Sequence record: NC_054915.1
Direction: 5' to 3' (one strand)
From: Escherichia phage vB_EcoM_G8
DNA length: 64,000 bases
The notes beneath the pieces were generated by a model, which had not been told where the DNA came from, searched no databases, and was given only the letters and a program-made list of their open reading frames with translations. Position 1 is the first letter of the stretch. Every line of letters starts with the position of its first letter. The translations under genes were made by a program, and so were the position numbers. Shown piece by piece: positions 2,418 to 55,993 of the stretch.

Positions 2418-2447
2418 ATTATACCACATCCTTGTGGTAAAGTAAAC
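2418..2447 (-). promoter_or_regulatory. T4-type early promoter (-35 GTTTAC, 18-nt spacer, -10 TATAAT on minus strand)
   Basis: plus strand reads attata...gtaaac; -35 overlaps gene 39 stop codon. Confidence 0.7.
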
Positions 2448-4267
2448 TATTGGCTCATCCATTCTTTACGAAGGTCAGCATTATCTCCCATGAGCATTTC
2501 AAAAAGCTCTTTCCAGTTCTCAGGAAGTTTAACAACATCATATACTGGGTTTTGAATCATCTCACGATATTCAGATTTTTCCAAAGAGCCAAGTCCCTTA
2601 ATATAACGGATGCTATGTTTAGGTAGAGCATCTTTAGCACTCTCATATTCAGCGACTGTATAAAACCATTCTTGTTTTTTACCGACCTGAGCGATGATTA
2701 CAGGAGTTTTGACAAAACGAATTCGTCCTTGCTCAAACAATTCTGGCCAATTACTAAAAAATCCGAGCAGAGAAGGATAAATGCTTCCTAGACCATCATG
2801 GTCAGCATCAGTCATAATAGCAATATTATGATAATTCAAGTTTTCAGCTTTTTCACCAAGAACTAATCCAGTGATTGCGCAAATATCAAATAGTTCTTTG
2901 TTTTTAAGCATATCAGCATATGACATACCCCAACTGTTGAGAACTTTACCACGTAATGGATAACCACCATGAAGTTCTTTATCACGAACATCAATAAGAT
3001 ATCCGATAGCCGAATCACCCTCAGTCAAGAAAAGAGTAGTGTCAGCATCTTTACCACAAAGATTCGCTTTGATATGTTTATGAACCTTAGCTTTAGAAGC
3101 CTTTTTAGCTGCTTTAGTTTCTGCTGCTTTTTCTGCCGCCAATTTACGAGCTAATGCTGCTTCAATAATCGGCATTAAAATTGCTTCATTATTCAAAATA
3201 GCACGTGAAATCTTTTTAGCATCAAGTTGAATATGACTACGGATTTCACCAAATGGAGAAGTCAAACGCTCTTTAGTTTGAGAATCAAATCGCATGTTTT
3301 TCATATCACGAACAAACATAACGATAGTCAAACATTCTTTAACGCGTGCTTTAGTTACATCAATTTTGAACTTGCGTTTGATTTGTGGAATAAGGTCTTC
3401 ACAAATATCATCCATAACACAGTCAATGTGATGGCCACCATTCTTAGTGTGAATGTTATTCACATAAGTTAATTGACGAAAACCGTCGGGTGAACGACCA
3501 ACCGCAATAGAACAATTTTCTTGTTCTTGAACGATAGCATGTTCATCATACTGTCGTGCATATTTCTTAAAATTGCCCTGAACCTTTTTACCATTAAAGG
3601 TAAATTGAATATCAGGATAAACAACAGCAAGTGTCTGGAGACGATCTAGTGTAATGTCAAGATAAACCTGGGACAGCTCATTAGTTTCAAATGACATAAA
3701 ATCAGGAATGAAAGTAACACGGGTTCCTTTCCATTTTCCAGGAATATCTTCCCATGATTTATTTTCCATGCCGTTTGAACAACGAACTACAATATTATTT
3801 TGACCATCGCCAGTTTCACCGACAAACATCACAGAAAAAATGTTTGTCAAACTAGAACCAACACCATTCATACCGCCGGTGACGCGTTCTTTATCATCAC
3901 CGAAGTTACCACCCGCTTTTGGAATAGTCCATGCAGCAACTGGACCAGGAATTTCTTCACCGGTAGGTGTTTTAACCATCGCTTGTGGAATACCACGACC
4001 GTTATCTTCAACTGTTACTTGATTGTTTTTAATAGTAACATTAATTTTATTTGCGAATTTAAACTTAGTACGAATACCTTCATCTACTGAGTTATCGATA
4101 ATTTCATCAATAAGCTTAACAAGACCAGGTACATACTGAACACTTTCCCATTTACCAAACAGAAAGCGCTCATGCATTTCATTAGCAGAAGAGCCAATGT
4201 ACATGCCGCTACGCTTTTTGATATGTTCAATATCGCTCAGAATTTTAATTTCATTCTTAATCATCAC
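2447..4267 (-). CDS. 39: DNA topoisomerase II large subunit, uninterrupted gp39 (GyrB-like ATPase + Toprim; includes the segment that is separate gene 60 in T4)
   Basis: 606-aa ORF; GHKL ATPase and Toprim motifs; C-terminal portion continuous with N-terminal portion; directly adjacent to rIIA.1 with no mobA/gene 60 between. Confidence 0.92.
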   Translation of the reverse strand: MMIKNEIKILSDIEHIKKRSGMYIGSSANEMHERFLFGKWESVQYVPGLVKLIDEIIDNSVDEGIRTKFKFANKINVTIKNNQVTVEDNGRGIPQAMVKTPTGEEIPGPVAAWTIPKAGGNFGDDKERVTGGMNGVGSSLTNIFSVMFVGETGDGQNNIVVRCSNGMENKSWEDIPGKWKGTRVTFIPDFMSFETNELSQVYLDITLDRLQTLAVVYPDIQFTFNGKKVQGNFKKYARQYDEHAIVQEQENCSIAVGRSPDGFRQLTYVNNIHTKNGGHHIDCVMDDICEDLIPQIKRKFKIDVTKARVKECLTIVMFVRDMKNMRFDSQTKERLTSPFGEIRSHIQLDAKKISRAILNNEAILMPIIEAALARKLAAEKAAETKAAKKASKAKVHKHIKANLCGKDADTTLFLTEGDSAIGYLIDVRDKELHGGYPLRGKVLNSWGMSYADMLKNKELFDICAITGLVLGEKAENLNYHNIAIMTDADHDGLGSIYPSLLGFFSNWPELFEQGRIRFVKTPVIIAQVGKKQEWFYTVAEYESAKDALPKHSIRYIKGLGSLEKSEYREMIQNPVYDVVKLPENWKELFEMLMGDNADLRKEWMSQ

Positions 4268-4316
4268 TTATCCTCGTTTGGTTTCGGGAATATTATACTC
4301 CAATAATCATAAAGCT

Positions 4317-4334
4317 AAAGGCCCGAAGGCCTTT
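4317..4334 (-). promoter_or_regulatory. C(UUCG)G tetraloop stem-loop (6-7 bp stem) between lipoprotein gene and gene 39
   Basis: plus strand aaggcc-cgaa-ggcctt; followed on minus strand by ttggagTATAAT -10-like element. Confidence 0.55.
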
Positions 4335-4603
4335 TATTTAAAACGAATAGTCGAATCCTTGAAGAATAGTCCAGAACATACTGTTCCTTCTACTTTCTGC
4401 CCAGTAGGTCCAATAGCACGAAATCCAGTATGCTGGAAATCATTTTCAGAGCAACCGAACCAATTATATCCAGTGATTTCAATATTAGTAAAACCACTTG
4501 AAGACAAAACTTTGGTTGCATTATCAGCATCAGTACATCCTATTAAAGACACTGCTAATACTAATGCTGCAATAGAACGATTAATATATTTCATAATTTT
4601 CAC
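4334..4603 (-). CDS. putative lipoprotein (signal peptide + lipobox LIGC)
   Basis: 89-aa ORF; N-terminal hydrophobic segment ending in LIGC. Confidence 0.6.
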   Translation of the reverse strand: MKIMKYINRSIAALVLAVSLIGCTDADNATKVLSSSGFTNIEITGYNWFGCSENDFQHTGFRAIGPTGQKVEGTVCSGLFFKDSTIRFK

Positions 4604-4977
4604 TTAAATTTAATGGCTTGAAGAAGACTAATAACTCTCAAGCGGCTTCTTTCATCTTTAACTGTAAAGGAAAGAGGGTCACCAGATTTCATAGTGATAG
4701 TGCATTCAAAATCAAAATCTTCAGGAACTTCTTCGAAGAAGTCAAATTCTTCATCATAAATTAGAACATTACTTTGAAAACTGTGAAGAATTTTTCCATC
4801 ATTTCCAGATGCTGTACTAATCATTGTAACATTATTACCTTTCATATCTTCAACGATAAATTCGCTTGTAGATATTACAGCATTAATAGAACCATTCCTA
4901 TAAATAGCAGACATTAGATATTTCTTTTCTTCGCCTTCGCGAATACGATACTTCTTACCGATTTTAAACATAATCAC
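4600..4977 (-). CDS. hypothetical protein
   Basis: 125-aa ORF, start/stop overlap with neighbours typical of T4 early operons. Confidence 0.5.
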   Translation of the reverse strand: MIMFKIGKKYRIREGEEKKYLMSAIYRNGSINAVISTSEFIVEDMKGNNVTMISTASGNDGKILHSFQSNVLIYDEEFDFFEEVPEDFDFECTITMKSGDPLSFTVKDERSRLRVISLLQAIKFK

Positions 4978-5150
4978 CCTTTAAGTAAGTCGTAAAAACC
5001 ACCATTCACATGCTTAGGAGCGGAAACTAACCGAATAGCAATCCGATGACAATCAGGACATACATCAGTATCCCTTTCAGAAATTTTCTTGATTTTTTCG
5101 TATTCTTTTGCGCAGTCTTTGGATTGACATTTATAATCATAAAGAGGCAT
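4974..5150 (-). CDS. FmdB-type zinc-ribbon small protein (58 aa), not in supplied ORF track
   Basis: hand translation MPLYDYKCQSKDCAKEYEKIKKISERDTDVCPDCH...; two CxxC pairs; coordinates approximate. Confidence 0.5.
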   Translation of the reverse strand: MPLYDYKCQSKDCAKEYEKIKKISERDTDVCPDCHRIAIRLVSAPKHVNGGFYDLLKG

Positions 5151-5152
5151 AA

Positions 5153-5572
5153 TTATTCCTTAAAGTGAGCTTTCAACATCTGATACAAGGACCATGCTTG
5201 TTCATTATTTTCAATAGTAACTTTCATTACCGGGAATTCTGTGAAATCTTCTATTTGTTCTTGCTCTTCCTGCTCTTGTTCTTCAGCAGCCTGATATGGA
5301 TTTTCAACTTCATCAAAGAACCCAGCTTCGTTAGTAGAGAGCCAGATAAAGTTTTCGTCAAGGATATCACCGCCGGCACAACGTTTGAGTACACCTATGG
5401 ATGTCATAATTTTAGTAGGACGCCCAAGATAATCAGCATCTAAAATTTTAAAAGGCTCCATACCTAAACGTCGCGCATAAATTCCGTTATCAGTATGGTC
5501 TTTAATAAAATTTTCTTGAGCTTGTTTATTTTTAAATTGATACCATTTATTAACTTCAAATTTAATAGCCAT
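5153..5572 (-). CDS. hypothetical protein with acidic EQ-rich segment
   Basis: 139-aa ORF. Confidence 0.55.
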
Positions 5573-5787
5573 TAATAAATTTCCTTCCAGTAAGTTGTGC
5601 CGTCTTCAGTAATTTCACGAAATACACCGTAAATTGGCTGTTTATCACCGACTTTCTCATACACATAAACAGAAGTCAAGTGAGTAAACTTGCTAGTATG
5701 TTCCTTTTGAACTACTACCAAATTTGGATCAAATAATACATCTTCAAATTCATCATTAGTGCAGTTCTGAACAATTTTACGTTTCAT
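5572..5787 (-). CDS. hypothetical small protein
   Basis: 71-aa ORF, ATGA overlap with downstream gene. Confidence 0.5.
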
Positions 5788-5885
5788 TACAATTTCCTCA
5801 TTAATTAAACATTGGAGCGATGCGTTTCAGAAGAGTATCAGCACCTTTAGCGAATTTCCATTTTATTCTCCAAGTTGTTTTCTGT

Positions 5886-5927
5886 ATCAGTAGTTGATAT
5901 TGATATAGTACCATAATCAACTACTGA
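5886..5927. repeat. 13-bp perfect inverted repeat (atcagtagttgat / atcaactactgat) with 16-nt spacer containing early-promoter-like tatagtacca motif
   Basis: read directly in intergenic region 5788-5958. Confidence 0.6.
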
Positions 5928-5958
5928 TGTATATAGTTTTATGAAAAAATTTTAAACT

Positions 5959-6447
5959 TTATGCATAGAGAGCATTGCTATAGTGTTTAATCCAACTTTC
6001 AGGAATGACTTTGTATGTTCCTAAAAATACCACATTGTACAGCTTAACACCATCTTCTACCCATTGATCAGTAATGTATCCACACATAGCGCGAGTATAA
6101 ACAGCCTTTCCATCATCTTTGATAAATTTAAATTCACAAGGAGCAACGAACTTGATAGCTTGACCGAGTTTCCACTTAAAGTCTACACCTACGTGCGAAG
6201 TATCAATCGTTTCAATTCCTTTAGCGGGAACAGCTTTCAAAAACGCAGATTCAAGAAATTTCGCGCGAACATAACCAAACTGAGGTTTAGACTTTCCATC
6301 TTTAGGAATGATACGCACTTTTACTTCAGAATCTTCATCTTTAACGCCGTGTTTAAGCTGAATGCTTACAATTTCGACCAATTTTCCTGCTGCTTTAGAG
6401 CGGGATTTATCAGATACACGAGCTAATTCACCAATATTAATAATCAT
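5959..6447 (-). CDS. MotB-like protein (162 aa; either motB or motB.1 of T4 order)
   Basis: length equals T4 MotB; position between gene 39 block and dexA; shares C-terminal TDQW-EDGV-L-NVV motif with next ORF. Confidence 0.55.
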   Translation of the reverse strand: MIINIGELARVSDKSRSKAAGKLVEIVSIQLKHGVKDEDSEVKVRIIPKDGKSKPQFGYVRAKFLESAFLKAVPAKGIETIDTSHVGVDFKWKLGQAIKFVAPCEFKFIKDDGKAVYTRAMCGYITDQWVEDGVKLYNVVFLGTYKVIPESWIKHYSNALYA

Positions 6448-6491
6448 AGTTATCTCTCACTTGTTAAAAAGATTTTATACTCCACAGGACC

Positions 6492-6521
6492 ATTATACTC
6501 TGGTCCCAAGAGTTTGTAAAC
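6492..6521 (-). promoter_or_regulatory. T4-type early promoter
   Basis: plus strand attata-18nt-gtaaac upstream of ORF starting at 6447. Confidence 0.65.
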
Positions 6522-6523
6522 TA

Positions 6524-7066
6524 TTAATTCAAAATAGCTACCACTGCACTACGAGGTACTACGCTAAAATCACCCGCATGAACAACGTTCAGAAGTTCAA
6601 CACCATCTTCAATCCATTGGTCTGTTACCCAACCACAGACCGAAATAAATGGGGTCTTAATAGCTACTGCATGAGTCAAAAGGTCAGTAGGATCAACTTC
6701 TTTGAAGAGGATAAGCTCTGCTTCAAAGACTATAGTTTTAATTACTTCATCATTATCTAAACGGTGTACTCGAATCACGTAAGCTTTATTCTTATCATAC
6801 CAGTTACTTTTTGAAAAGCTTTTAACCACAAACTCGCCTTCACCAAAAGCATTAGTCAATGCTTTATAACCCAAATTTAGTTCAGTAGTTTTAATTTCAG
6901 TTTCAACCAGTTTGTAGGTTTTGCCAATTTCGATGGTCCGAGCAGTCATAAATGTTTCCTTAATTTCTAATGGTTTAACAAGAGTGCCGTACATGCTTGC
7001 TATATCCATATCAAACGGTTTAGCTACCGGATTTGGTATGTATTCAGGATTATAATTAAATTTCAT
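6524..7066 (-). CDS. MotB-paralog protein (180 aa)
   Basis: C-terminal 35 aa clearly similar to 5959-6447 product. Confidence 0.55.
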   Translation of the reverse strand: MKFNYNPEYIPNPVAKPFDMDIASMYGTLVKPLEIKETFMTARTIEIGKTYKLVETEIKTTELNLGYKALTNAFGEGEFVVKSFSKSNWYDKNKAYVIRVHRLDNDEVIKTIVFEAELILFKEVDPTDLLTHAVAIKTPFISVCGWVTDQWIEDGVELLNVVHAGDFSVVPRSAVVAILN

Positions 7067-14647: not shown

Positions 14648-14716
14648 AGTGCTCTCCTCTATAAGATAATTCTATTATACCACACTCATTTTGATATGTA
14701 AACTGCAAAAACGAAA

Positions 14717-14738
14717 AAGGAACCCCGAAGGATTCCTT
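14717..14738 (-). terminator. C(UUCG)G stem-loop followed by U-run on minus strand, downstream of soc
   Basis: plus strand aaaaaggaacc-ccgaagg-attcctt. Confidence 0.5.
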
Positions 14739-15189: not shown

Positions 15190-15402
15190 TCATTTTGAAT
15201 GCTCTATAATTAATTTTAAGGCTTCTTCACTGACAAAAATTTCATCAGGACCTTCTTCTACAACCCAATCAACCCAATCAACCGTACGAAGCTGATTAGA
15301 TAAGAGCTCACATACGAGCTCTTTGTCATAATCTTTAAATAGCTGGTTAATACGTTTCTTGCGGGCTTTCTTAAGTTGGCGTTTATTTAAACGAGCCATC
15401 AA
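15190..15402 (-). CDS. hypothetical basic small protein
   Basis: 70-aa ORF. Confidence 0.5.
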   Translation of the reverse strand: MMARLNKRQLKKARKKRINQLFKDYDKELVCELLSNQLRTVDWVDWVVEEGPDEIFVSEEALKLIIEHSK

Positions 15403-21178: not shown

Positions 21179-21541
21179 TTAAAAGAATTTAAATTTTTTC
21201 TTTGACCTTTTATTAAATGCATCTTGTAGTTGCATTGTAATACATTTTTCTACATGAGGAGCTAACTCAGCTTTTCTTTCTTGGTCAAGAACAGCAAAGT
21301 CCATTACAACCTTTCCATCAACCCAATCCAGTTTAGTTACATACACTATATGTGTAGAACCATCTTCTAGTTTAATGACAATCTCCTGGATAACATTTTC
21401 CATAGCGGATTTAATTATCTTAAGAGACTCATTAAAAAGACGTTCTTTTCTTTCTTCTTCCCCCTCCGAAGAGGGGGATTCATCGATAATTTCTAGATCT
21501 AAGTCTAAATCATCTTTATTCATTAAATTCTTCCATATCAC
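21179..21541 (-). CDS. 40: gp40-like protein (head vertex assembly)
   Basis: 120-aa ORF between 41 and uvsX as in T4. Confidence 0.6.
   Translation of the reverse strand: MIWKNLMNKDDLDLDLEIIDESPSSEGEEERKERLFNESLKIIKSAMENVIQEIVIKLEDGSTHIVYVTKLDWVDGKVVMDFAVLDQERKAELAPHVEKCITMQLQDAFNKRSKKKFKFF
21460..21477 (-). other. perfect 7-bp GC-rich C(UUCG)G hairpin embedded in gene 40 coding sequence
   Basis: plus strand ccccctc-cgaa-gaggggg encoding ESPSSEGEE. Confidence 0.6.
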
Positions 21542-22697
21542 TTAACTGTTCTAGGTCAGTTTCTAAATCAGCTGCTGATTTACTTTTACTTTCTGGAGAT
21601 TTAAATTTTTCAACCTTTGAGTTAATCAATTCATCAACTTCAGCTTCAACAATTTCATTACTATCAATAGCACCTAACTGATAAGCACGTTTAATAGCAT
21701 CTCGGAATGGTTGATGCTTAAATAAAGGACCCCAGAATGTAGTGCAGTTAGTATCTTTTGCACGCCAAGATTTTTCTTCGCGAATCATCTCGCCAGTTTC
21801 TTCGTCAAGAAATTCACGAGCATACCAACCATTTTTAGGTTTTACTACAAATCTTAATTCTAGAGCCATATCTAACAATCCAGAATAAGGATCGATACCA
21901 CCGTCAAATTTAACATCAATAAAGAATTTACTTTTTTCTTTAACGGTACGAGATTTTTCTACATTTAGAACAAATTGATACCCCTGAAGATCAGAACCAT
22001 CTTTAATCTGGCGTTTACCGATAATGAATACGGTATCAGCCGAATACATTACGCCTGTACCACCTGTCATCACGGTTTTACTAAACATTTCAATTGTTTC
22101 AATTGTATGGTTAACCGCAACGCACGGAATATTTTTAATGCTAAAATAAGGAGTAACAATACGGAATAATGACTTCAGTGATTTAGCACGAGTCATATCT
22201 GCCACAGATTTTTCATTCAAGGCATCTTCCGTTTCTTTCTTAGAAGCCATATTACCAATTGAGTCGATGAATACTATAACCTTTTCACCACGCTCAATAG
22301 CTTCAAGCTGATTCACCATATCAATTTTCAGCTGTTCAACTGACTGGATTGGCGTATGAATTACTCGTTCCGGGTCAACTCCCATGGATCGCAAATAAGC
22401 TGGAGTAATACCAAATTCGCTATCATAGAATAGACAAACCGCGTCAGGATATTTGTTCAAATACGCTGCAACCATAGTCAAAGACATATTTGATTTAAAG
22501 TGTTTAGAAGGACCTGCAAAAATAGTTAAACCCGACTGCATGCCGCCATCAATCGCACCAGAAATAGCAATATTAAGCATTGGGATTTTTGTACGGATTA
22601 CATCCTTTTCATTAAAGAATTTAGATGTAGTCAGTTCAGCAGTCATTTTAGAAGTGGAAGCTTTAATCAAACGGGATTTTAAATCTGCAATAGACAT
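21516..22697 (-). CDS. uvsX: UvsX recombinase (RecA-like)
   Basis: 393-aa ORF closely matching remembered T4 UvsX. Confidence 0.95.
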   Translation of the reverse strand: MSIADLKSRLIKASTSKMTAELTTSKFFNEKDVIRTKIPMLNIAISGAIDGGMQSGLTIFAGPSKHFKSNMSLTMVAAYLNKYPDAVCLFYDSEFGITPAYLRSMGVDPERVIHTPIQSVEQLKIDMVNQLEAIERGEKVIVFIDSIGNMASKKETEDALNEKSVADMTRAKSLKSLFRIVTPYFSIKNIPCVAVNHTIETIEMFSKTVMTGGTGVMYSADTVFIIGKRQIKDGSDLQGYQFVLNVEKSRTVKEKSKFFIDVKFDGGIDPYSGLLDMALELRFVVKPKNGWYAREFLDEETGEMIREEKSWRAKDTNCTTFWGPLFKHQPFRDAIKRAYQLGAIDSNEIVEAEVDELINSKVEKFKSPESKSKSAADLETDLEQLSDMEEFNE

Positions 22698-25458: not shown

Positions 25459-25545
25459 AGTTTTGTGAAAAATTTTTAGGGAATCCAAAGGGTCCAGAAT
25501 CATCTCTTTTTCATAAGTATAGATTTATATTACTTGTATGAAAAA

Positions 25546-25561
25546 GGGACCTGGAGGTCCC
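25546..25561 (-). terminator. intrinsic terminator downstream of gene 43 (GC stem gggacc/ggtccc followed by U5 on minus strand)
   Basis: plus strand aaaaa-gggacc-tgga-ggtccc. Confidence 0.6.
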
Positions 25562-25574
25562 TAGATTTATTCTA

Positions 25575-28274: not shown

Positions 28275-28309
28275 TATTCCTTAGTTTATAGCCCGAGTTA
28301 TTAGGCTCT
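28275..28309 (-). promoter_or_regulatory. gene 43 translational operator (hairpin plus adjacent RBS region bound by gp43)
   Basis: minus strand reads AAGAGCCUAAUAACUCGGGCUAUAAACUAAGGAAUAUCUAUG, matching remembered T4 operator. Confidence 0.7.
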
Positions 28310-28331
28310 TGATATATTATACTCCAAATAA

Positions 28332-28345
28332 GGGGCCGAAGCCCC
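28332..28345 (-). promoter_or_regulatory. C(UUCG)G stem-loop between regA and gene 43, followed by ttggagTATAAT
   Basis: plus strand ggggc-cgaa-gcccc. Confidence 0.55.
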
Positions 28346-28349
28346 TTGC

Positions 28350-29284: not shown

Positions 29285-30244
29285 TCACTTCCACTGCATT
29301 TCACATGCTAATTGAATGAAAAGATAAGCTAAATGCAATTCAGTATTAGCTGCAATACCATGATACTGATTATTTTCGCCGACAATTTCGTACATACGAA
29401 TAATACTCTGTGGAGTTACACGTGAATAGATTTCTTCGGCAAGTTTACCTACGAACCACGAATAATCGGCTGCATATTTTGGTGCTAAAGCTCTGAGTTG
29501 TTTAACATCTTTATTTTTGAGAGACTCAAGAACATCATCAATAGCACCACGATCGTTAGTAACCAGTGATAAAATACCAGCATCCAAAACACCTTTAGAT
29601 GAATAACTATCGAGCTCGCCAATAGTTTTACGAAAATCAGGAAAATTCTTTTTAACCAAAGCTGCTACAACTTTCATATCAGCTATAGCAATACCTTCAT
29701 GTTTACAGATTTCGGTCAACCGACGAATCATCTGCTTCATCATTTCAATTTTATCTTCATCGGTCGGTTGACCGAATGTGATAACTCGGCAGCGTGACTG
29801 AAGCGGTTTAATAATACCATCAATATTGTTAGCAGTAATAATAATACTACAGTTTGAGCTGTAAGCTTCCATAAAGGAACGAAGATGTCGCTGAGATTCT
29901 GCTAAACCTGAACGGTCAAATTCATCAATAACGATTACTTTTTGACGACCATCAAATGAAGCGGCGCTGGCAAAATTAGTCAAAGGACCACGAACGAAAT
30001 CAATTTTACAATCTGAACCATTCACAAACATCATATCAGCATTTACATCATGACACAATGCTTTTGCTACAGTTGTTTTACCTGTTCCTGGAGAAGGAGA
30101 ATGAAGAATAATATGTGGAATCTTACCTTTACTTGTAATAGATTTAAAGGTTTCTTTATCAAAGGCGGGAAGAATACATTCATCGATAGTAGATGGACGA
30201 TATTTCTGTTCAAGAATGTGTTCTTTTTCATTTACGGTAATCAT
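29285..30244 (-). CDS. 44: clamp loader ATPase gp44 (AAA+)
   Basis: start set at MITVNEKEH (319 aa); Walker A GTGKTT. Confidence 0.93.
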
Positions 30245-30275
30245 AATTTCCTCATTCAAGTTTTAGTGTAAATTA

Positions 30276-30295
30276 TAGAGGGCCGAAGCCCTCTA
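30276..30295 (-). promoter_or_regulatory. 8-bp C(UUCG)G stem-loop between genes 45 and 44
   Basis: plus strand tagagggc-cgaa-gccctcta. Confidence 0.55.
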
Positions 30296-30982
30296 TTAAA
30301 AATCGTGGGTAGAATCAGCTTCAAGAGCTACTACATAATTCGCGTGTTCACCTTCAAATTTAGCAGCGCCTTGTTTACCTTTTGCCCAGAGCAGAAGTTT
30401 ATAATTTCCTGGTTGCATTTTCATATTTGCCATATTGATAATGAAATTAAATGTATTTTCACCATCATAATCACCAAGAGTCAAAGAATATTTAACACGG
30501 GTCAGAGCAGAATCTTCTACTTTATTAAAACCGTTAATTACGATTTTACCTTCTTTTACCGTGATAGCAATTGTATCAATTTGCAGACCACGAGATACAC
30601 GCAACAGTTGTTGAAGGTCTTCAGCTTTAATTTCAGTAACAACAGATGCTACCGGGAATGGAATTGGTTTATTAGGAGCAACTACTGTACTCGGATCGGC
30701 TGCTGGCCAAAAAATTGTTGAGCGGGCATCAGCAATTTTAATATTTCCATCTTCTGACTGGGAAATTTCTGCATCATCATTAACTAGAGACAGAATACCG
30801 AGAAAACCATTCAAATCGTAAATTGCTACATCAAAATCAATAACGTCAGAAATATTTGCTTCCGCATAAGTTGTACCATTAACTGCGCGAGTCATAATAA
30901 ATTGACCGGATTTAAGCATAATTCCAGAGTTAATAGTAGCGAAATTTTTCAAAATATTCAGTGTATCTTTAGACAGTTTCAT
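30296..30982 (-). CDS. 45: sliding clamp gp45
   Basis: 228-aa ORF matching remembered T4 gp45. Confidence 0.95.
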   Translation of the reverse strand: MKLSKDTLNILKNFATINSGIMLKSGQFIMTRAVNGTTYAEANISDVIDFDVAIYDLNGFLGILSLVNDDAEISQSEDGNIKIADARSTIFWPAADPSTVVAPNKPIPFPVASVVTEIKAEDLQQLLRVSRGLQIDTIAITVKEGKIVINGFNKVEDSALTRVKYSLTLGDYDGENTFNFIINMANMKMQPGNYKLLLWAKGKQGAAKFEGEHANYVVALEADSTHDF

Positions 30983-34826: not shown

Positions 34827-34986
34827 ATATCAAGAACCGTCATTGAAATGCAAAATAAAATTATTGAAATAAATCCATCTGGAGTGCTAAAGAACCCAAT
34901 CCAACATGCTTTAGTGAATAGATAAAATGCAAGAAAAAGTATCACATATCCAAGAAATATCATTATATCAAACTCCGTATAAAGCT

Positions 34987-35004
34987 AAAGGGCCGAAGCC
35001 CTTT
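34987..35004 (-). promoter_or_regulatory. C(UUCG)G stem-loop downstream of agt
   Basis: plus strand aaagggc-cgaa-gcccttt; same flanks as the 4317 copy. Confidence 0.55.
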
Positions 35005-36205
35005 ATTTTGTAATAATGTCAAACTGTTCTTTAAAGCAGAAGCTTGAATCTTGATGCTGATACAAAAATTCATAAGCTTTTTCGCGTTCACGGTCATAAA
35101 GAGTTCGGTCAGATGACAGTTCTTTAATACGCTCGAATGTTGATTCCATGTCATTTTCATCAAACCAAATGATACCGCTATCATGCGAGGTCAAAGGAGT
35201 ATTATCAACACGGAATTTTAAATTTTCGCCAGTAGATTTCCAAAATACCGGAATTGTTCCACATGCACCAAGCTCGAGATGAGTATATTCTAAAGAGCGC
35301 TGTAGATATTTTTTATCCAACTTACTCAACTGATAACCAAATCCGGATTTACTCATGCGTTCAAGCATTTCGCTATTTACATAACGGTCAAGAATTTGCG
35401 TTGGCAAATTAGGAGCAATTTTAATTTGGTCTACTTGATGAAGACGATAATACTCGTATGGAATTCCTTTTTCTTTAATAGGAATGAACGCTGGAGAACG
35501 TTCCAGACCTTCCATAATAGTACTTAGTCCTGCAGGTTTAAGATGTTTTTCATGAAAATCAAACATCTGATAAAAACCTTTCCATGTAGTCGTACGACCA
35601 ATCCAACGGTTGATATTCATGTTAATTTCAGAAACATCTTTCCAGTAGGTTGATCGAACCTTCGCAATATCCATAGGAGGCTGAAAGTTGTATACAGTCG
35701 GTGCTTCTTCAATATCATCAAACAGAGAAACTGTTTCTGGATACCATTCTTTCATCAGAACTTTATTAAAATCGCCATTATCAGAATGACTAAAAATAAC
35801 ATCAGCTCGACGAACAGTTTCTTCTAATCCCAAATTTCGGCGCAAAGAAAGAGAAGAATGGTCATGTTGATAAACTACAACACGAACCGAAGGTTTAATG
35901 TTATCAATAATTTTTTTATAGTTATTAATAGTGTCTTCTTCAACTGAAGTAGCAGGAACTGAATTGATAATTAGAATATCACAATCATTTACCAGCTTAA
36001 GTGTTTTATCGTATTCTTTTGCCAATAAAACCGGAATTGAAAATGATTTATAATCATGCGCACAGTTACGAGTAAATGATTTATCTTTAGCATAAACCAA
36101 AGTTACTTCATGACCATTTTTAATAAACCAATCACGCTGCTCAAGAGAAAATTTAGTTACACCGCAACCTTCAAGACCCCGAGCCATAAAAATGCAAATA
36201 CGCAT
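35003..36205 (-). CDS. agt: DNA alpha-glucosyltransferase
   Basis: start set at MRICIFMARGLEGCG (400 aa) matching remembered T4 alpha-gt. Confidence 0.9.
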   Translation of the reverse strand: MRICIFMARGLEGCGVTKFSLEQRDWFIKNGHEVTLVYAKDKSFTRNCAHDYKSFSIPVLLAKEYDKTLKLVNDCDILIINSVPATSVEEDTINNYKKIIDNIKPSVRVVVYQHDHSSLSLRRNLGLEETVRRADVIFSHSDNGDFNKVLMKEWYPETVSLFDDIEEAPTVYNFQPPMDIAKVRSTYWKDVSEINMNINRWIGRTTTWKGFYQMFDFHEKHLKPAGLSTIMEGLERSPAFIPIKEKGIPYEYYRLHQVDQIKIAPNLPTQILDRYVNSEMLERMSKSGFGYQLSKLDKKYLQRSLEYTHLELGACGTIPVFWKSTGENLKFRVDNTPLTSHDSGIIWFDENDMESTFERIKELSSDRTLYDREREKAYEFLYQHQDSSFCFKEQFDIITK

Positions 36206-36263: not shown

Positions 36264-37058
36264 CTACGAATAGGCCCAAACATATCCATAAGCAATTTTG
36301 CTTTTTCCAGATATGCACTTTTTAATATTAGACATGCATCCTTTAACGGATACAGCTGCGTCTTTAATTTTAGGAAATACTCGTAATAATTTTCCAGTAG
36401 TATCATATTGAAATACTGGCACATTTCTTTTCTGAGTTATCCCACGTTTAGATTTAGACATTTTTTGTTTAGTTGCATTAGACATCCTAGAGGGCTTTCC
36501 TATGTTATCAGAATAATAATATTTCCATTGAAATCCTCCAGCGGTTTTCCTTTTCCCATCTACACATTGTTTAATTGAACTTGAACAGCTATATGACATA
36601 TCTTCTGCAGCATCTGTAATACATCTATATTTGCGAATAAAATTTCCATTTAAATCATATTGATAAATTGGTTTTCCAGCATTTCGTCTAGCGTTAGACA
36701 TGTATTTTTTATTATCATCATCTTTCCAGAACTCTTTCATGCCTTCCGATATTGAGGAAGATACGGCTGTTTTAATCCATCCATACATTTTATTATTTAG
36801 TCTTGTTCCGTCAGAACTATAACACATCATACGAATAGCTAAAGCCAATTTAGGAAGTCTATAAATTTTAAATAATAATAAATGCGCGGTAAAATGTTCT
36901 TCTGGTGTCAAAAGAACTAAATTAGTTTTATCATCTGTACCACCCATACATCTAGGAATTATATGATGAGTTTCAGTATAGTATGTTAAAAGACTTTTAT
37001 CATTGCCTCTGTTTAGTCCTTTTTCGATCAGTAAATTATATATGTTTAAATAATTCAT
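36264..37058 (-). CDS. HNH homing endonuclease with tandem NUMOD-like DNA-binding repeats
   Basis: 264-aa ORF; HNH core HHIIPRCMGGTDDKTNLVLLTPEEH; two repeats of ...QYD..G..+..+.+I.DAA... Confidence 0.8.
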   Translation of the reverse strand: MNYLNIYNLLIEKGLNRGNDKSLLTYYTETHHIIPRCMGGTDDKTNLVLLTPEEHFTAHLLLFKIYRLPKLALAIRMMCYSSDGTRLNNKMYGWIKTAVSSSISEGMKEFWKDDDNKKYMSNARRNAGKPIYQYDLNGNFIRKYRCITDAAEDMSYSCSSSIKQCVDGKRKTAGGFQWKYYYSDNIGKPSRMSNATKQKMSKSKRGITQKRNVPVFQYDTTGKLLRVFPKIKDAAVSVKGCMSNIKKCISGKSKIAYGYVWAYS

Positions 37059-37091
37059 TTTAATTATTTTACCAAAAATTTATAAAGCAAT

Positions 37092-37111
37092 ATAGGAGCC
37101 GAAACTCCTAT
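37092..37111 (-). promoter_or_regulatory. stem-loop upstream of HNH endonuclease gene
   Basis: plus strand ataggag-ccgaaa-ctcctat. Confidence 0.4.
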
Positions 37112-39424: not shown

Positions 39425-39463
39425 ACATTATCCTCAATTACGTTAAAATTTTATTATCCAAAA

Positions 39464-39479
39464 AAGGGCCGAAGCCCTT
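39464..39479 (-). terminator. intrinsic terminator: C(UUCG)G stem-loop followed by U6 on minus strand
   Basis: plus strand aaaaaa-gggcc-gaa-gccctt. Confidence 0.6.
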
Positions 39480-39678
39480 AGCTAAACTTTTTGGCACCCT
39501 TCCAGCCTTCGTACATCATTGCGGCTGATATTAATATTGCTCCTGAGCAACTTGAATATTTGTGATTCCAAAACCAGTTTAGAAAAACTTCGTCATCAAT
39601 ACCTTGTGCTATCATATTTTCAAAGAACTGACGACGAGCTTCAGCAATTCGCTGCGATAATTTAGATTCAGGATTCAT
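39478..39678 (-). CDS. hypothetical small protein
   Basis: 66-aa ORF. Confidence 0.5.
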   Translation of the reverse strand: MNPESKLSQRIAEARRQFFENMIAQGIDDEVFLNWFWNHKYSSCSGAILISAAMMYEGWKGAKKFS

Positions 39679-40310: not shown

Positions 40311-40340
40311 ATAATACCACGGTTTGAACTTGTTGTAAAC
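40311..40340 (-). promoter_or_regulatory. T4-type early promoter (-10 TATTAT) in repeated cassette
   Basis: plus strand ataata-18nt-gtaaac followed by conserved gtaaacaactttgtgaaaaat. Confidence 0.6.
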
Positions 40341-40421
40341 AACTTTGTGAAAAATATTTTAGGGAATGATAAGAAAGGAACGATAGCTTAGAATGGTAAT
40401 ATACAGAATGTGAGAAAGAAA

Positions 40422-40435
40422 GGCCCAGAGGGCCC
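40422..40435 (-). terminator. GC stem-loop immediately downstream of nrdH-like gene
   Basis: plus strand ggccc-aga-gggcc. Confidence 0.45.
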
Positions 40436-40762: not shown

Positions 40763-41045
40763 GAGAAATAATTCCTTGGTAAGCCCAATAAGGAGGATTA
40801 ACAGAATCCTCACCAGAGTTTTCTTCAGGAAAATAAACCTGGATAACAAATCCAGACGCATCAAAGGTAAAATAAACCGTAGGTAGTTCACCTAACAATT
40901 CGGCACGAGTATTAATTTCTTCGAGATCTCGTTCACGTCCAGCCCAAAAACTAGGATTTAGACTACATTCGTAAAAATAATAGTCATTACCGAACATATC
41001 AAAACCCTTCCAACTCTCTACCACATACCGCTCAAAACTAATCAT
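40734..41045 (-). CDS. hypothetical protein
   Basis: 103-aa ORF. Confidence 0.55.
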   Translation of the reverse strand: MISFERYVVESWKGFDMFGNDYYFYECSLNPSFWAGRERDLEEINTRAELLGELPTVYFTFDASGFVIQVYFPEENSGEDSVNPPYWAYQGIISRGTKLELKE

Positions 41046-41378: not shown

Positions 41379-41849
41379 TTAATCATGTTTCCACACCCCA
41401 TCGGTATTTGACCAAAGTCGCTGATTATCTGATCCTCGCCACAGCTTTTTAGTCGGAAGATTTTTCTCATACTTCCCATCAATAATAACATCAACATATT
41501 TAAGCATTTCTAGTTGTTTAATATCTTCAAACTTATATCCTGCCCACAACCAAATGCTTTTATTGGGATAAAGATTTTTAATAGTTTGAACCACAGAGTG
41601 AATCACGTCTCTGTTATCAGGATAAAGAGGGTCACCTCCGGTTATAGTCAATCCTTCTATATAATCATTATTCAAACATTCAATTAATTGTTCTAGTGTT
41701 TCACCAGTGAATGGAATACCATTTCTAGCATTCCATGTTGATTTATTATAACACCCTTCACATTTATGCAAACAACCCGTAACGAAAAGAACGACCCTGC
41801 AACCAGGGCCATTCACAAAATCGCAAGGATAAAATCTATCGTAATTCAT
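41379..41849 (-). CDS. nrdG: anaerobic ribonucleotide reductase activating protein (radical SAM)
   Basis: 156-aa ORF; CxxxCxxC cluster in FVTGCLHKCEGCYN. Confidence 0.9.
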   Translation of the reverse strand: MNYDRFYPCDFVNGPGCRVVLFVTGCLHKCEGCYNKSTWNARNGIPFTGETLEQLIECLNNDYIEGLTITGGDPLYPDNRDVIHSVVQTIKNLYPNKSIWLWAGYKFEDIKQLEMLKYVDVIIDGKYEKNLPTKKLWRGSDNQRLWSNTDGVWKHD

Positions 41850-43146: not shown

Positions 43147-43923
43147 CTACTTCTCTACCCGTTTATATGAAACAATGTAATTTGGATAATTGTCATCTAA
43201 ACACAAATCTTTAATACGACTTGGGTGGAGTTTTAAATCTTTAGCAGCATCCACAAATGATTTATAGATATTGTCATTTATTTTAACATATTCTGGGACG
43301 GGATGAATTGTTATTTTTATATCTATAACATTTGGATGATTACTAACCTGTTCTTCAGAGCATTTAAGAAATTTTGCAGCTGATTTAAAACTTCTAAATT
43401 TATTTCCGGATTTTAAAGCTATAGAAACAGTCTTTTTAGCCGTTCTACTACCAATATTATTTTTAACATGAGCTTCACTTCTACTATTATTTTTATAATG
43501 CTCAATCAATTTCTCTCGTATCTTATCTTTATGTTTTAAAGATAAGATTTTACCTTTATGGGCATTACTAAGTTTTTGCTTATGTTCTTCTGAATCCGGA
43601 TATTTGTTAAATTTATATCCACCTATAGATTTATTAAGAATAAATTCGTTATTAAAATATTTCCTAATAAGCATTTCTTCATGTTTAAGGGCCGATTCAT
43701 AAGAATCAAAAACTTGAAGAATTATCCACTTAGCTTTATAATCTTTAAGCTTTTCTTTAACAAGCTTAGATGACGAATTGTATTCTTTCCAATTTGTATC
43801 TTTACCATATATAGTTTTGAATTTTTTAAAACCTATATAAAAAGACTTATCAGGAAATCTTACCATATAGGTAAATGCTACAGAATTGGCAAGTTTTAAG
43901 CTTTTTCTTAATTTCCATTTCAT
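43147..43923 (-). CDS. intron-encoded GIY-YIG homing endonuclease (I-TevII-like)
   Basis: 258-aa ORF inside intron; GIY-YIG-like FTYMV...FYIG N-terminus; length equals I-TevII. Confidence 0.8.
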   Translation of the reverse strand: MKWKLRKSLKLANSVAFTYMVRFPDKSFYIGFKKFKTIYGKDTNWKEYNSSSKLVKEKLKDYKAKWIILQVFDSYESALKHEEMLIRKYFNNEFILNKSIGGYKFNKYPDSEEHKQKLSNAHKGKILSLKHKDKIREKLIEHYKNNSRSEAHVKNNIGSRTAKKTVSIALKSGNKFRSFKSAAKFLKCSEEQVSNHPNVIDIKITIHPVPEYVKINDNIYKSFVDAAKDLKLHPSRIKDLCLDDNYPNYIVSYKRVEK

Positions 43924-43955: not shown

Positions 43956-44152
43956 TAAACAGCTGCATGTCACCATGCAGTTCAGACTATATCTTCAACT
44001 CTTAGAGTTGTCTGCCGTTTCGGGTCGCTTGACCCTACTCCCTTACATTCATCAGGGATAGTCGTTGGGCATTTACAGCTACTGCTGATTTAGCAACGGA
44101 TTGTCTCAGTGAGAGTTTCCCGTTTTAGGCAGATTTTACATGAGCTTGACTT

Positions 44153-44696
44153 ACGTTAACTCATAAGCTTGGAATGCATCGTATACGTCTTTTTCTGTTT
44201 TAGATTGAGCATAATTCAACGCATCAGCGATTTGCCATTTTTCTGCATCCTCAATATGTTTTGCATAGGTGCGTTTAACATAAGGAGAAAGTACTTTATC
44301 TACATTCGCAAATGTAGTTCCGCCATACTGGTGTGAAGCAACTTGTGCAGTAATTTGTGCCATAATTGCAGTAGCAACACCAATCGATTTAGGCGTTTCA
44401 ATTTGAGCATTGCCTAATTTAAATCCGTTCTCAAGCATCCCCTTTAAATCGACTAAACAGCAATTAGTAAAAGGCAATGATATACTGTAATCTAAATCAT
44501 GAAAATGAATTAATCCAACATTATGGGCATTTACAATATGACTTGGAAGAATACGACAAGCGATATGTTTAGAAACAATACCGGCCATTAAATCTCTTTT
44601 TGTTGGAAAGACGCGAGAATCTTTGTTGGCGTTTTCTGTATTTAATTCTTTATCTTTATTTGAAATAAAATTTAAAACATCTTTTTCTAAAGACAT
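44153..44696 (-). CDS. nrdD: anaerobic ribonucleotide reductase NrdD, exon 1
   Basis: 181 codons from MSLEKDVLNF... to ...AYELT before the inferred 5' splice site. Confidence 0.85.
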
Positions 44697-54229: not shown

Positions 54230-54259
54230 ATAGTACCATAAAGCTTTATGCTTGTAAAC
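54230..54259 (-). promoter_or_regulatory. T4-type early promoter in repeated cassette (about 85 percent identical over about 95 nt to the 25390-25480 copy)
   Basis: direct sequence comparison. Confidence 0.65.
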
Positions 54260-54289
54260 AGTTTTGTGAAAAATTTTTGAAATAAAAAA

Positions 54290-54307
54290 GGGAGCCCGAA
54301 GGCTCCC
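54290..54307 (-). terminator. intrinsic terminator: 7-bp C(UUCG)G stem-loop plus U-run, downstream of nucleotidyltransferase gene
   Basis: plus strand aaaaaa-gggagcc-cgaa-ggctccc. Confidence 0.6.
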
Positions 54308-54309
54308 TA

Positions 54310-55746: not shown

Positions 55747-55943
55747 GCCATGTGAGTTGCAACTTCATCACACATATTATAACGTTTCTTAAGAAGTTCT
55801 ACAAGTTCTTCACTAGTAACTTCATCCATGTCGACGAAAAAATCACCATTAATGATGACGTAGATATTTCCTTCTTGATTGAGTGCTTCAATTTTCATGA
55901 TGTTCTCCTCTTTATCCGATAGTTGTATAGTACCACAGCTCAA
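55710..55943 (-). CDS. small protein (start probably internal MKIEALNQ, downstream of promoter)
   Basis: 77-aa track ORF; promoter overlaps its first codons. Confidence 0.45.
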
Positions 55944-55956
55944 ACGGAAAGTAAAC
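55927..55956 (-). promoter_or_regulatory. T4-type early promoter in repeated cassette
   Basis: plus strand gatagttgtatagtaccaca...gtaaac. Confidence 0.6.
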
Positions 55957-55970
55957 CGGTAAAATGAAAA

Positions 55971-55988
55971 AAGTCTCCCGAAGGAGAC
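55971..55988 (-). terminator. intrinsic terminator: 7-bp C(UUCG)G stem-loop plus U6
   Basis: plus strand aaaaaa-gtctcc-cgaa-ggagac. Confidence 0.6.
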
Positions 55989-55993
55989 TAACG

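Follow-up and report, generated by a model that had tools for sequence, protein, structure and literature searches.

UUCG-capped RNA hairpins at gene boundaries in the early region of Escherichia phage vB_EcoM_G8 and their probable roles in transcription

Genomic setting

The DNA analysed here, referred to as the window, is a stretch of 64,000 nucleotides from Escherichia phage vB_EcoM_G8 (NC_054915.1). It is a Tequatrovirus early-gene region, collinear with approximately 1–66 kb of T4, and positions 3000-7000 match hundreds of Tequatrovirus genomes with 93-98% identity by megablast. The gene order is rIIA, 39, dda, soc, 41, uvsX, 43, regA, 62, 44, 45, 46, 47, a-gt, 55, nrdD, nrdC, tk and regB, with essentially every gene on the minus strand and a G+C content of about 34%. 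Gene 39 forms one open reading frame of 605 amino acids, so the T4 gene 60/mobA insertion is missing from this phage. When the entire window was scanned against Rfam, a group I intron was the sole match and no family spanned the hairpins described below.

Hairpin census

Ten GC-rich stems capped by UUCG, perfect or near-perfect in their pairing, are encoded on the minus (coding, mRNA) strand of the window (Table 1); they are named here by their first coordinate. Nine are intergenic, and the remaining one (21459) lies within gene 40. The loop is closed by a C-G pair in all except 37092, where the closing pair is U.G in this phage and C-G in T4 and close relatives. The eight sites at which the original prediction had placed GC stems closed around UUCG on the transcribed strand are all real. 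Among the three further sites that it offered as variants, 37092 does carry UUCG, with U.G closure, whereas the loops at 25545 (UCCA) and 40421 (UCU) are not UUCG; the former is UCCA in T4 also and UCCG in close relatives. Nine of the ten UUCG hairpins had thereby been listed, and the one inside gene 40 had been overlooked.

Table 1. Coordinates of the hairpins, promoters and related motifs in the window (G8, 1-based). "Canonical" marks a hairpin that is a canonical intrinsic terminator by sequence; arms are given as 5' arm-loop-3' arm.
Feature	Coordinates	Strand	Sequence or elements	Remarks
Middle promoter P39	4292..4315	-	MotA box GCTTTA, 12-bp spacer, -10 TATAAT	begins 1 nt past the 4317 hairpin
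C(UUCG)G hairpin	4317..4334	-	AAAGGCC-UUCG-GGCCUUU	39.1|39; -10.7 kcal/mol; T4 orthologue 5381-5398
Early-type promoter	14674..14702	-	TTTACA-N17-TGgTATAAT	directly after the soc terminator; PeSL-type cassette
C(UUCG)G hairpin after soc	14717..14738	-	AAGGAAUCC-UUCG-GGGUUCCUU, then UUUUUCGUUUUU	canonical
C(UUCG)G hairpin in gene 40 coding sequence	21459..21478	-	UCCCCCUC-UUCG-GAGGGGGA	-16.7 kcal/mol; T4 orthologue 22329-22348
Non-UUCG hairpin, terminator-like	25545..25562	-	AGGGACC-UCCA-GGUCCCU, then UUUUUCAU	12 nt after gene 43 stop
Gene 43 translational operator hairpin	28290-28308	-		3' of the P43 -10; operator described in PMC3014915
P43 -10	28316..28321	-	TATAAT	T4 +1 at 29933, window ~28311
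C(UUCG)G hairpin	28330..28347	-	AAGGGGC-UUCG-GCCCCUU	2 nt after regA stop; spans about -19 to -36 of P43
C(UUCG)G hairpin, 45|44	30275..30296	-	AUAGAGGGC-UUCG-GCCCUCUAU	-15.8 kcal/mol, z -5.9
Middle promoter P47	34962..34985	-	GCTTTA, 12-bp spacer, TATAAT	starts right after the 34986 hairpin
C(UUCG)G hairpin	34986..35005	-	UAAAGGGC-UUCG-GCCCUUUA	T4 orthologue 36607-36626
Middle promoter PmobB (Pa-gt.1)	37066..37088	-	GCTTTA, 11-bp spacer, TAAAAT	3 nt after the 37092 hairpin
UUCG hairpin, U.G closure	37092..37111	-	AUAGGAGU-UUCG-GCUCCUAU	a-gt.2 stop codon within 5' arm
RegB-type motif	39449..39459	-	GGAUAAUAAAA	right after the 39464 terminator U-tract
C(UUCG)G hairpin	39464..39479	-	AAGGGC-UUCG-GCCCUU	canonical; overlaps 55.3 stop; six U after GC core
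Non-UUCG hairpin, terminator-like	40421..40435	-	GGGCCC-UCU-GGGCCU, then UUCUUUCU	3 nt after nrdH stop
Early-type promoter	54230..54258	-	TTTACA-N17-TGgTACTAT	downstream of the 54289 terminator; PeSL-type cassette
C(UUCG)G hairpin	54289..54308	-	AGGGAGCC-UUCG-GGCUCCCU, then UUUUUUAUUU	canonical; 1 nt after nrdC.11 stop; -17.7 kcal/mol
Early-type promoter	55927..55955	-	TTTACT-N17-TGgTACTAT	downstream of the 55972 terminator
C(UUCG)G hairpin	55972..55989	-	AGUCUCC-UUCG-GGAGACU, then UUUUUUCAUUUU	canonical; 4 nt after rI.-1 stop

The motif is strongly enriched. CTTCGG occurs 32 times in the window against 12.3 expected, a count reached in none of 100 shuffles, and UUCG caps stems of at least 5 bp 12 times on the minus strand and once on the plus strand (shuffle mean 1.9, maximum 8 in 200 shuffles). 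Among stems of at least 6 bp it is the top-ranked tetraloop. Position is equally marked: nine of the ten stems start between -4 and +5 nt relative to a stop codon, and the zone from -4 to +12 makes up only 3.8% of the window (binomial P ~2e-12). The stop codon is incorporated in the stem at four of the ten. At 4317, the first base of the hairpin is the final base of the 39.1 stop codon, the first three nucleotides of the 34986 stem are the UAA of a-gt, and the 30275 hairpin, upstream of gene 44, overlaps the gene 45 stop by 1 nt; the hairpin in gene 40 begins 37 nt past the uvsX stop. Folding predictions are stable throughout, with energies from -10.7 to -17.7 kcal/mol and z-scores against shuffles from -1.9 to -5.9, the 30275 hairpin being the most stable of the set relative to shuffles.

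A chance origin of the hairpins is ruled out by these shuffle, strand and position statistics. Placement at the 3' boundaries of genes, on the transcribed strand, was predicted correctly, but the word "family" applied to the hairpins is misleading because the stem sequences are unrelated, sharing only GC-richness and the loop. Descent as a repeat family is therefore ruled out, and the motif is better described as convergent and structural.

Predicted termination signals

An intrinsic terminator was defined here as a GC-rich stem-loop followed by at least 5 U in 8 nt. Five UUCG sites (14717, 37092, 39464, 54289 and 55972) carry such a U-tract, as do the two non-UUCG hairpins at 25545 and 40421, and a terminator scan called the same five UUCG sites. 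Four of them (14717, 39464, 54289 and 55972) form, together with the non-UUCG hairpin at 25545, which the scan likewise calls terminator-like, a first class with 6-7 U over the 8 nt past the GC core. The proposal that some of the hairpins are terminators holds by sequence criteria for this class, and it gains a depositor-predicted terminator at 4317: GenBank annotations place a terminator at the core of this hairpin in phage G50 and a promoter just after it in phage Lutter.

The other sites are less clear-cut. The scan rejected 4317, 21459, 28330, 30275 and 34986, which have no contiguous U-run. With the basal A-U pairs counted, four of these (4317, 28330, 30275 and 34986) reach 5 U each over the 8 nt past the GC core, although the scanner rejects them all, and the nine intergenic UUCG hairpins all have 4-7 U over that stretch. 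A second class consists of 4317, 34986 and 37092, with tails after the GC core of UUUAGCUU (the tail at 4317), UUAUUUGG or UAUAUUGC and 4-5 U in 8 nt. The U-tract at 30275 is weak. The hairpin at 21459, inside the gene 40 coding sequence, has no U-tract, its A/G-rich tail AAGAAGAA containing 0 U in 8 nt.

Published work on T4 is compatible with terminators of this type, since the UUCG tetraloop is frequent in T4 intergenic stem-loops such as terminators (PMC1702504), and the stem-loops of promoter-early stem-loop (PeSL) cassettes act as terminators in reporter assays (PMC2839356). A literature search for Term-seq, long-read or 3'-end maps of T4 found none that was usable and none for these sites, and a search on T4 intrinsic terminators and tetraloops likewise returned nothing usable.

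Adjoining promoters

Several hairpins are immediately followed by promoters. A canonical MotA box and -10 element, in the form GCTTTA-N11-12-TAtAAT, begins 0-3 nt downstream of 4317, 34986 and 37092; the window contains this pattern 26 times where 7.3 would be expected. MotA-dependent middle promoters were recognised by the sequence (a/t)(a/t)TGCTT(t/c)a located 11-13 bp upstream of a TAnnnT -10 element, together with a start mapped in T4, and P39, P47 and PmobB (4292-4315, 34962-34985 and 37066-37088) have all of these features. The mapped T4 +1 positions are 5349 for P39, 36576 for P47, 38682 for PmobB and 29933 for P43 (Hinton 2010, PMC2988021 Table 1). Converted to the window, these starts fall at ~4285, ~34955, ~37059 and ~28311, which is 7 nt downstream of the -10 elements of P39, P47 and PmobB and 5 nt downstream of that of P43. 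This agreement identifies the TATAAT elements that had been noticed downstream of two hairpins (ttggagTATAAT at 4300 and 28315, present as GGAGTATAAT at 4292-4301 and 28316-28325) as the genuine -10 regions of the mapped MotA-dependent promoters P39 and P43 (PMC2988021 Table 1). In the P47 region, GGAG at 34973-34976 provides the Shine-Dalgarno sequence for 47.1, whose ATG overlaps the -10.

P43 is the irregular case. A canonical MotA box at 11-13 bp spacing was not found there, and the sole GCTT core nearby belongs to the loop of the hairpin, at a distance of 15 bp from the -10. The DNA of the CTTCGG loop may itself be a displaced MotA box, a suggestion that has to stay tentative given that P43 has no canonical one.

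Early-type promoters (TTTACA/T-N17-TGgTATAAT or TGgTACTAT) follow 14717, 54289 and 55972 at a distance of ~15-30 nt. PeSL cassettes of T4-like phages (PMC4122927, PMC2839356) combine, within one intergenic region, a stem-loop with an early promoter, whose sequence in the PST/T4 pair is TTTACW-N17-TAYWAT (PMC2839356, PMC4122927), and this combination is found at all three sites. A general sigma-70 scan was uninformative because its counts equalled the shuffle expectation in such AT-rich DNA; the promoters given here are individual sites with support from the literature or from extended early-promoter features.

RegB sites and RNA processing

The hairpins had also been proposed as processing signals, and for the hairpins themselves no supporting evidence was found: RegB-type sites adjoin them and do not lie within them. 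GGAG or GGAU occurs 8-13 nt downstream of 4317, 28330 and 34986 and 4 nt downstream of 39464. The last of these sites, GGAUAAUAAAA, equals the 11-nt RegB/S1 consensus GGAGAAUAAAA except for U in place of G at position 4. The same study that gives the consensus reports RegB cleavage of a GGAU site at "orf 55.2" and, moderately, of a 47.1 site (PMC1702504), and these cuts may correspond to the GGAU at 39456-39459 and the GGAG at 34973-34976. Hairpins as RegB substrates are not supported, as structured, GGAG-containing intergenic stem-loops, often with UUCG, were reported to resist RegB (Durand et al., PMC1702504).

Conservation in T4

All ten hairpins have an orthologue in T4, at 5381, 15303, 22329, 29952, 31899, 36607, 38715, 40823, 55414 and 58797. 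The complete T4 genome contains 22 GC-stem UUCG hairpins, the gene 60 bypass hairpin included, and every one lies on the local coding strand, 19 on the minus strand in minus-strand gene blocks and 3 on the plus strand after the late plus-strand genes 18, 23 and 37. Among the tetraloops on GC-rich stems of T4, UUCG leads by a wide margin, with 19 cases on the minus strand against 5 for the next loop. At soc the difference between the two phages preserves pairing: the T4 hairpin (15303-15324) has the arms AAGGACUCC and GGAGUCCUU where the window has AAGGAAUCC and GGGUUCCUU, and the changes are compensatory.

Conservation in more distant relatives

Loci around gene 45 and around gene 39 were compared in other T4-like phages. 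Between genes 45 and 44, in phages whose gp45 is at least 59% identical, every one of the 15 distinct junctions has a GC hairpin at most 32 nt from the stop codon. The loop is UUCG in eleven, UACG in two, UUUG in one and GAAA in one, and at least nine unrelated stems are represented. None of 64 more distant T4-like phages has a UUCG hairpin at this junction, most having no hairpin at all (Fisher P 1.5e-10). The motif is thus not universal among T4-like phages, since the distant environmental ones (gp45 identity at most 47%) have no UUCG after gene 45. When eleven of the 45|44 hairpins are aligned, five of six stem pairs vary on both sides and 98.5% of cells pair, a level of covariation reached in 0 of 500 shuffles, to be read with the ascertainment bias that the aligned sequences were picked because they form hairpins.

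The same behaviour is seen at regA|43, a-gt.2|mobB, a-gt|47.1 and 39.1|39, where position is conserved, stems vary and loops are mostly UUCG, with occasional UCCG, UACG, GAAA, GCAA, UUAC, CUCG or CGUG. Relatives keep the regA|43 hairpin (28330) with other stems and loops, and in several of them extra open reading frames are inserted between regA and the hairpin. At a-gt.2|mobB, it is the hairpin followed by TGCTTT that is retained. The 21459 hairpin retains its stem in divergent phages, with UCAG as the loop. P39, by comparison, is not preceded by a hairpin in about half of the lineages, so the hairpin is dispensable there. Counted over the 20-kb loci of the relatives, 51 UUCG hairpins lie on the strand that carries the genes and 3 on the opposite one, and in the window and seven divergent loci together UUCG caps 20 of 56 stop-proximal GC hairpins compared to 4 of 91 in coding sequence.

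Position and a stable loop therefore persist while stems change by compensation, a sign that selection acts on the RNA structure and its loop. Read in this way, the comparisons indicate that the UUCG hairpins are maintained as RNA structures, and would be neither a repeat family nor DNA palindromes with a function of their own. Quick and stable folding of a short stem under a UUCG cap in an AT-rich genome would explain why the loop is kept and the stems drift.

Probable function of the hairpins

The hairpins are the classic CUUCGG hairpins of T-even mRNA, and they probably punctuate early and middle transcription as terminators or attenuators, as protectors of 3' ends and as promoter insulators. 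The results above establish how they are built, on which strand and where they lie, that they are enriched and conserved with covariation, and that promoters adjoin them; termination and stabilisation at each site, and the efficiency of both, are what this reading would predict. Each hairpin would be an independently evolved short GC stem with a very stable, fast-folding C(UUCG)G cap, encoded on the sense strand immediately past a stop codon. It would fold as RNA polymerase transcribes the stem, leading to intrinsic termination. High efficiency would be expected of the sites with five to seven U behind the stem (14717, 39464, 54289 and 55972), and partial termination, as in an attenuator, of those with an interrupted U-tract (4317, 28330, 30275, 34986 and 37092). 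A hairpin at or near the 3' end of an RNA, whether that end arises by termination or by cleavage downstream, could block 3'-to-5' exonucleases and so stabilise the upstream message; a role as RNA stabiliser, which had also been proposed originally, is therefore plausible. Finally, its position just ahead of the next promoter would allow the hairpin to shield that promoter (early sigma-70, or the MotA-dependent P39, P43, P47 and PmobB) from incoming transcription.

A narrower explanation, distinctly less probable, is that the hairpins with no full U-tract (4317, 21459, 28330, 30275, 34986 and 37092) are not terminators and only protect 3' ends. Read-through RNA would be cut downstream by RegB (at GGAG/GGAU) or RNase E and trimmed back to the hairpin by exonucleases, and this trimming would set the differential stability of the upstream cistrons. 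The missing contiguous U-runs fit this explanation, as does the 45|44 hairpin, which is strongly conserved and yet has no good U-tract in any lineage examined, so that little or no termination may occur at this junction. T4 mRNA is degraded by E. coli 3' exonucleases (PMC3014915), and GGAG or GGAU lies near 4317, 28330, 34986 and 39464, with RegB cutting reported at the 47.1 and 55.2 leaders. However, three to five proximal U follow the GC core at every intergenic site, as in weak terminators, GGAGUAUAAUA is a poor match to the A-rich RegB consensus, and no mapped processed 3' ends were found in the literature searched. Moreover, protection and termination are not mutually exclusive.

The preferred reading, in which the hairpins punctuate transcription, could be extended at the middle promoters. 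For the second class (4317, 34986 and 37092), weak termination or attenuation is plausible, with the U-rich tail doubling as the MotA box. A more specific and rather doubtful version is a dual-use module of ~45 bp, conserved across the Tevenvirinae, in which the RNA of the MotA box (UUUGCUUUA) would serve as terminator U-tract, attenuating early transcription, and the same element would launch middle transcription. Stems that begin between -4 and +5 nt from a stop codon would be kept from folding by a ribosome close behind, and read-through would become dependent on translation. If this were true, the classic sensitivity of delayed-early RNA to chloramphenicol would have an alternative contributing cause.

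A role at the DNA level, with the hairpins as PeSL or PmSL recombination linkers for gene shuffling or as cruciform palindromes and the RNA hairpin as a by-product, is unlikely. Hairpins are indeed paired with early or middle promoters, early-promoter intergenic segments recur around the genome, several relatives carry the extra open reading frames between regA and the hairpin, and PeSL cassettes are described as flanking variable open reading frames and as mediating insertions, deletions and mini-circles; recombination through them is documented, with one crossover in the loop (PMC2839356). A palindrome in duplex or cruciform DNA would have no reason to prefer one strand, though, and UUCG is on the mRNA strand in 22 of 22 T4 cases; stems that diverge while pairing is kept are the signature of RNA structure and leave little homology for recombination, the repeated homology lying in the promoter parts instead of the hairpins. 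Very improbable is a role as sites of protein binding or translational control (for example by RegA or gp43), or in ribosome termination or re-initiation at the adjacent stop and start codons. Several hairpins do lie in the RegA-regulated replication cluster (45|44, regA|43), stop codons are embedded in stems, and the UUCG hairpin beside a stop codon in T4 gene 60 acts on the ribosome during translational bypassing (PMC3014915). Yet the stems have no sequence in common that a protein could recognise, a different hairpin forms the gene 43 operator, the C(UUCG)G loop is said neither to bind proteins nor to make RNA-RNA contacts (PMC4371310), and the sites are scattered over functionally unrelated genes.

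Relation to known elements

This is the system in which the UUCG tetraloop was discovered, the composites are in the PeSL/PmSL papers and the promoters in Hinton 2010, so the finding is already known in its essentials; no new kind of element is described, and the results mainly confirm textbook biology. The CUUCGG hairpins of bacteriophage T4 mRNA were reportedly the subject of work by Tuerk and colleagues in 1988. Unusual thermodynamic stability, evident as reverse-transcriptase stops and high melting temperatures, marks that group, and for the window hairpins the corresponding values are the predicted energies given above. The window contains the same elements, as orthologous C(UUCG)G stems on the sense strand in intercistronic positions of T-even mRNA, and the differences are at strain level only: the compensatory changes at soc, the U.G pair at 37092, and the lack of the gene 60 bypass hairpin, which is absent here because gene 39 is unsplit. 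In T4 mRNA, UUCG was first recognised as an extraordinarily stable hairpin (PMC4371310). The T4 gene 60 bypass hairpin (2834-2857; PMC3014915) is likewise a C(UUCG)G stem beside a stop codon, but it works within a coding gap, on the ribosome.

The hairpins can also be compared with intrinsic terminators of E. coli, in which loops of 4 nt, UUCG especially, are said to be over-represented according to d'Aubenton Carafa and colleagues (1990). Common to both is a stop codon followed by a GC stem with a stable tetraloop and then a U-tract, the fit being full for 14717, 39464, 54289 and 55972, whereas five intergenic phage hairpins have interrupted U-tracts. The stems in the window overlap or nearly abut the stop codon, and typical bacterial terminators are farther off.

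What the comparative data illustrate is selection on RNA structure and loop type with stem sequence left free, restricted to the T-even-like clade, and the map of hairpins and promoters helps to delimit the transcription units of this phage. Three points appear mildly new. One is that the RNA of a MotA box could double as a terminator U-tract, and another that the near-invariable overlap of stem and stop codon could make read-through sensitive to translation. The third concerns layout. PeSLs and PmSLs share with the window the joining of a stem-loop terminator to an early or a Mot-box middle promoter (Arbiol 2010, PMC2839356; Comeau 2014, PMC4122927), but these papers stress recombination at the DNA level and do not discuss the UUCG loop, and PmSLs were described for nt-1. 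The arrangement of hairpin and MotA box at four mapped T4 middle promoters, kept in relatives, would add to that picture; in the window it is found at the mapped promoters P39, P47 and PmobB and, in a non-canonical form, at P43.

The hairpin and promoter upstream of gene 43

The translational operator hairpin of gene 43, which encodes DNA polymerase, begins about 3 nt past the mapped start site of the MotA-dependent middle promoter P43. In the P43 segment (window 28316-28347, - strand) no canonical MotA box was found 11-13 bp from the -10, and the sole GCTT core near P43 lies within the loop of the UUCG hairpin (GGGGCTTCGG), 15 bp upstream of TATAAT. In several relatives (L004, L007, L011, L012 and L017) a single additional small ORF separates the regA stop from the region of the UUCG hairpin and P43, and the UUCG hairpin goes with the gene 43 upstream region and not with regA. 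The operator loop is also the one in the first SELEX experiment.

Features located in the window (all on the - strand)
Feature	Window	Details
Hairpin upstream of motB	6485-6508	UGGGACCA-GAGUAUAA-UGGUCCUG
Gene 43 translational operator hairpin	28290-28308	GAGCCUAAUAACUCGGGCU, loop AAUAACUC
GGAG Shine-Dalgarno of 47.1	34973-34976	9 nt past hairpin 34986
RegB/S1-like site	39449-39459	GGAUAAUAAAA; immediately past the 39464 terminator U-tract
Terminator-like hairpin past nrdD	41789-41814	GAAUGGCCCUG-GUUG-CAGGGUCGUUC, then UUUUCG
Group I intron	43963-44194	Rfam, 105 bits

Possible processing sites and reading frames at the hairpins

RegB is reported to cut '55.2' and '47.1' sites (PMC1702504), and the RegB/S1-like site in the window matches the consensus GGAGAAUAAAA except for U in place of G at position 4. 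At the adjoining UUCG hairpin, T4 (40799-40838, L002) differs from the window (39464-39480) by a 1-nt indel, reading AGCCUAAGGGC against AGCUAAGGGC. Because of this indel, the annotated T4 55.3 ORF reads through the hairpin and is about 13 codons longer, whereas the window ORF ends at the hairpin base. A further difference from T4 concerns gene 39, which in the window is a single unbroken ORF of about 605 aa (2447-4267, - strand) that lacks the mobA/60.1/gene 60 insertion and, with it, the gene 60 translational-bypass hairpin, likewise a C(UUCG)G hairpin (T4 2834-2857).

The nrdD region

The group I intron adjoins a 258-aa ORF (43147-43923, - strand) equal in length to T4 I-TevII, which suggests the nrdD (sunY) intron that T4 also carries. 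The terminator-like hairpin, about 35 nt past the nrdD stop and within the nrdG coding sequence, is kept in divergent relatives with GAUG or GCUG loops, and it has the same layout as the UUCG hairpin at 21459, which lies past uvsX and within gene 40.

Early-promoter segments and the motB upstream region

The motif AAAAAUUUUUCACAAAAC..GTTTAC is common to intergenic segments at about 25470-25500, 40340-40370 and 54250-54280 (- strand) and resembles an extended consensus for early promoters with an UP element. Copies of these segments, 72-91% similar, were found by BLAST at several T4 intergenic sites, consistent with repeats of the PeSL type (stem-loop plus early promoter). Upstream of motB, the hairpin loop holds a -10-like GAGTATAAT and GUGGAGUAUAA comes after the hairpin; a TTTACA-N17-TATAAT match at 6520-6492 overlaps it.
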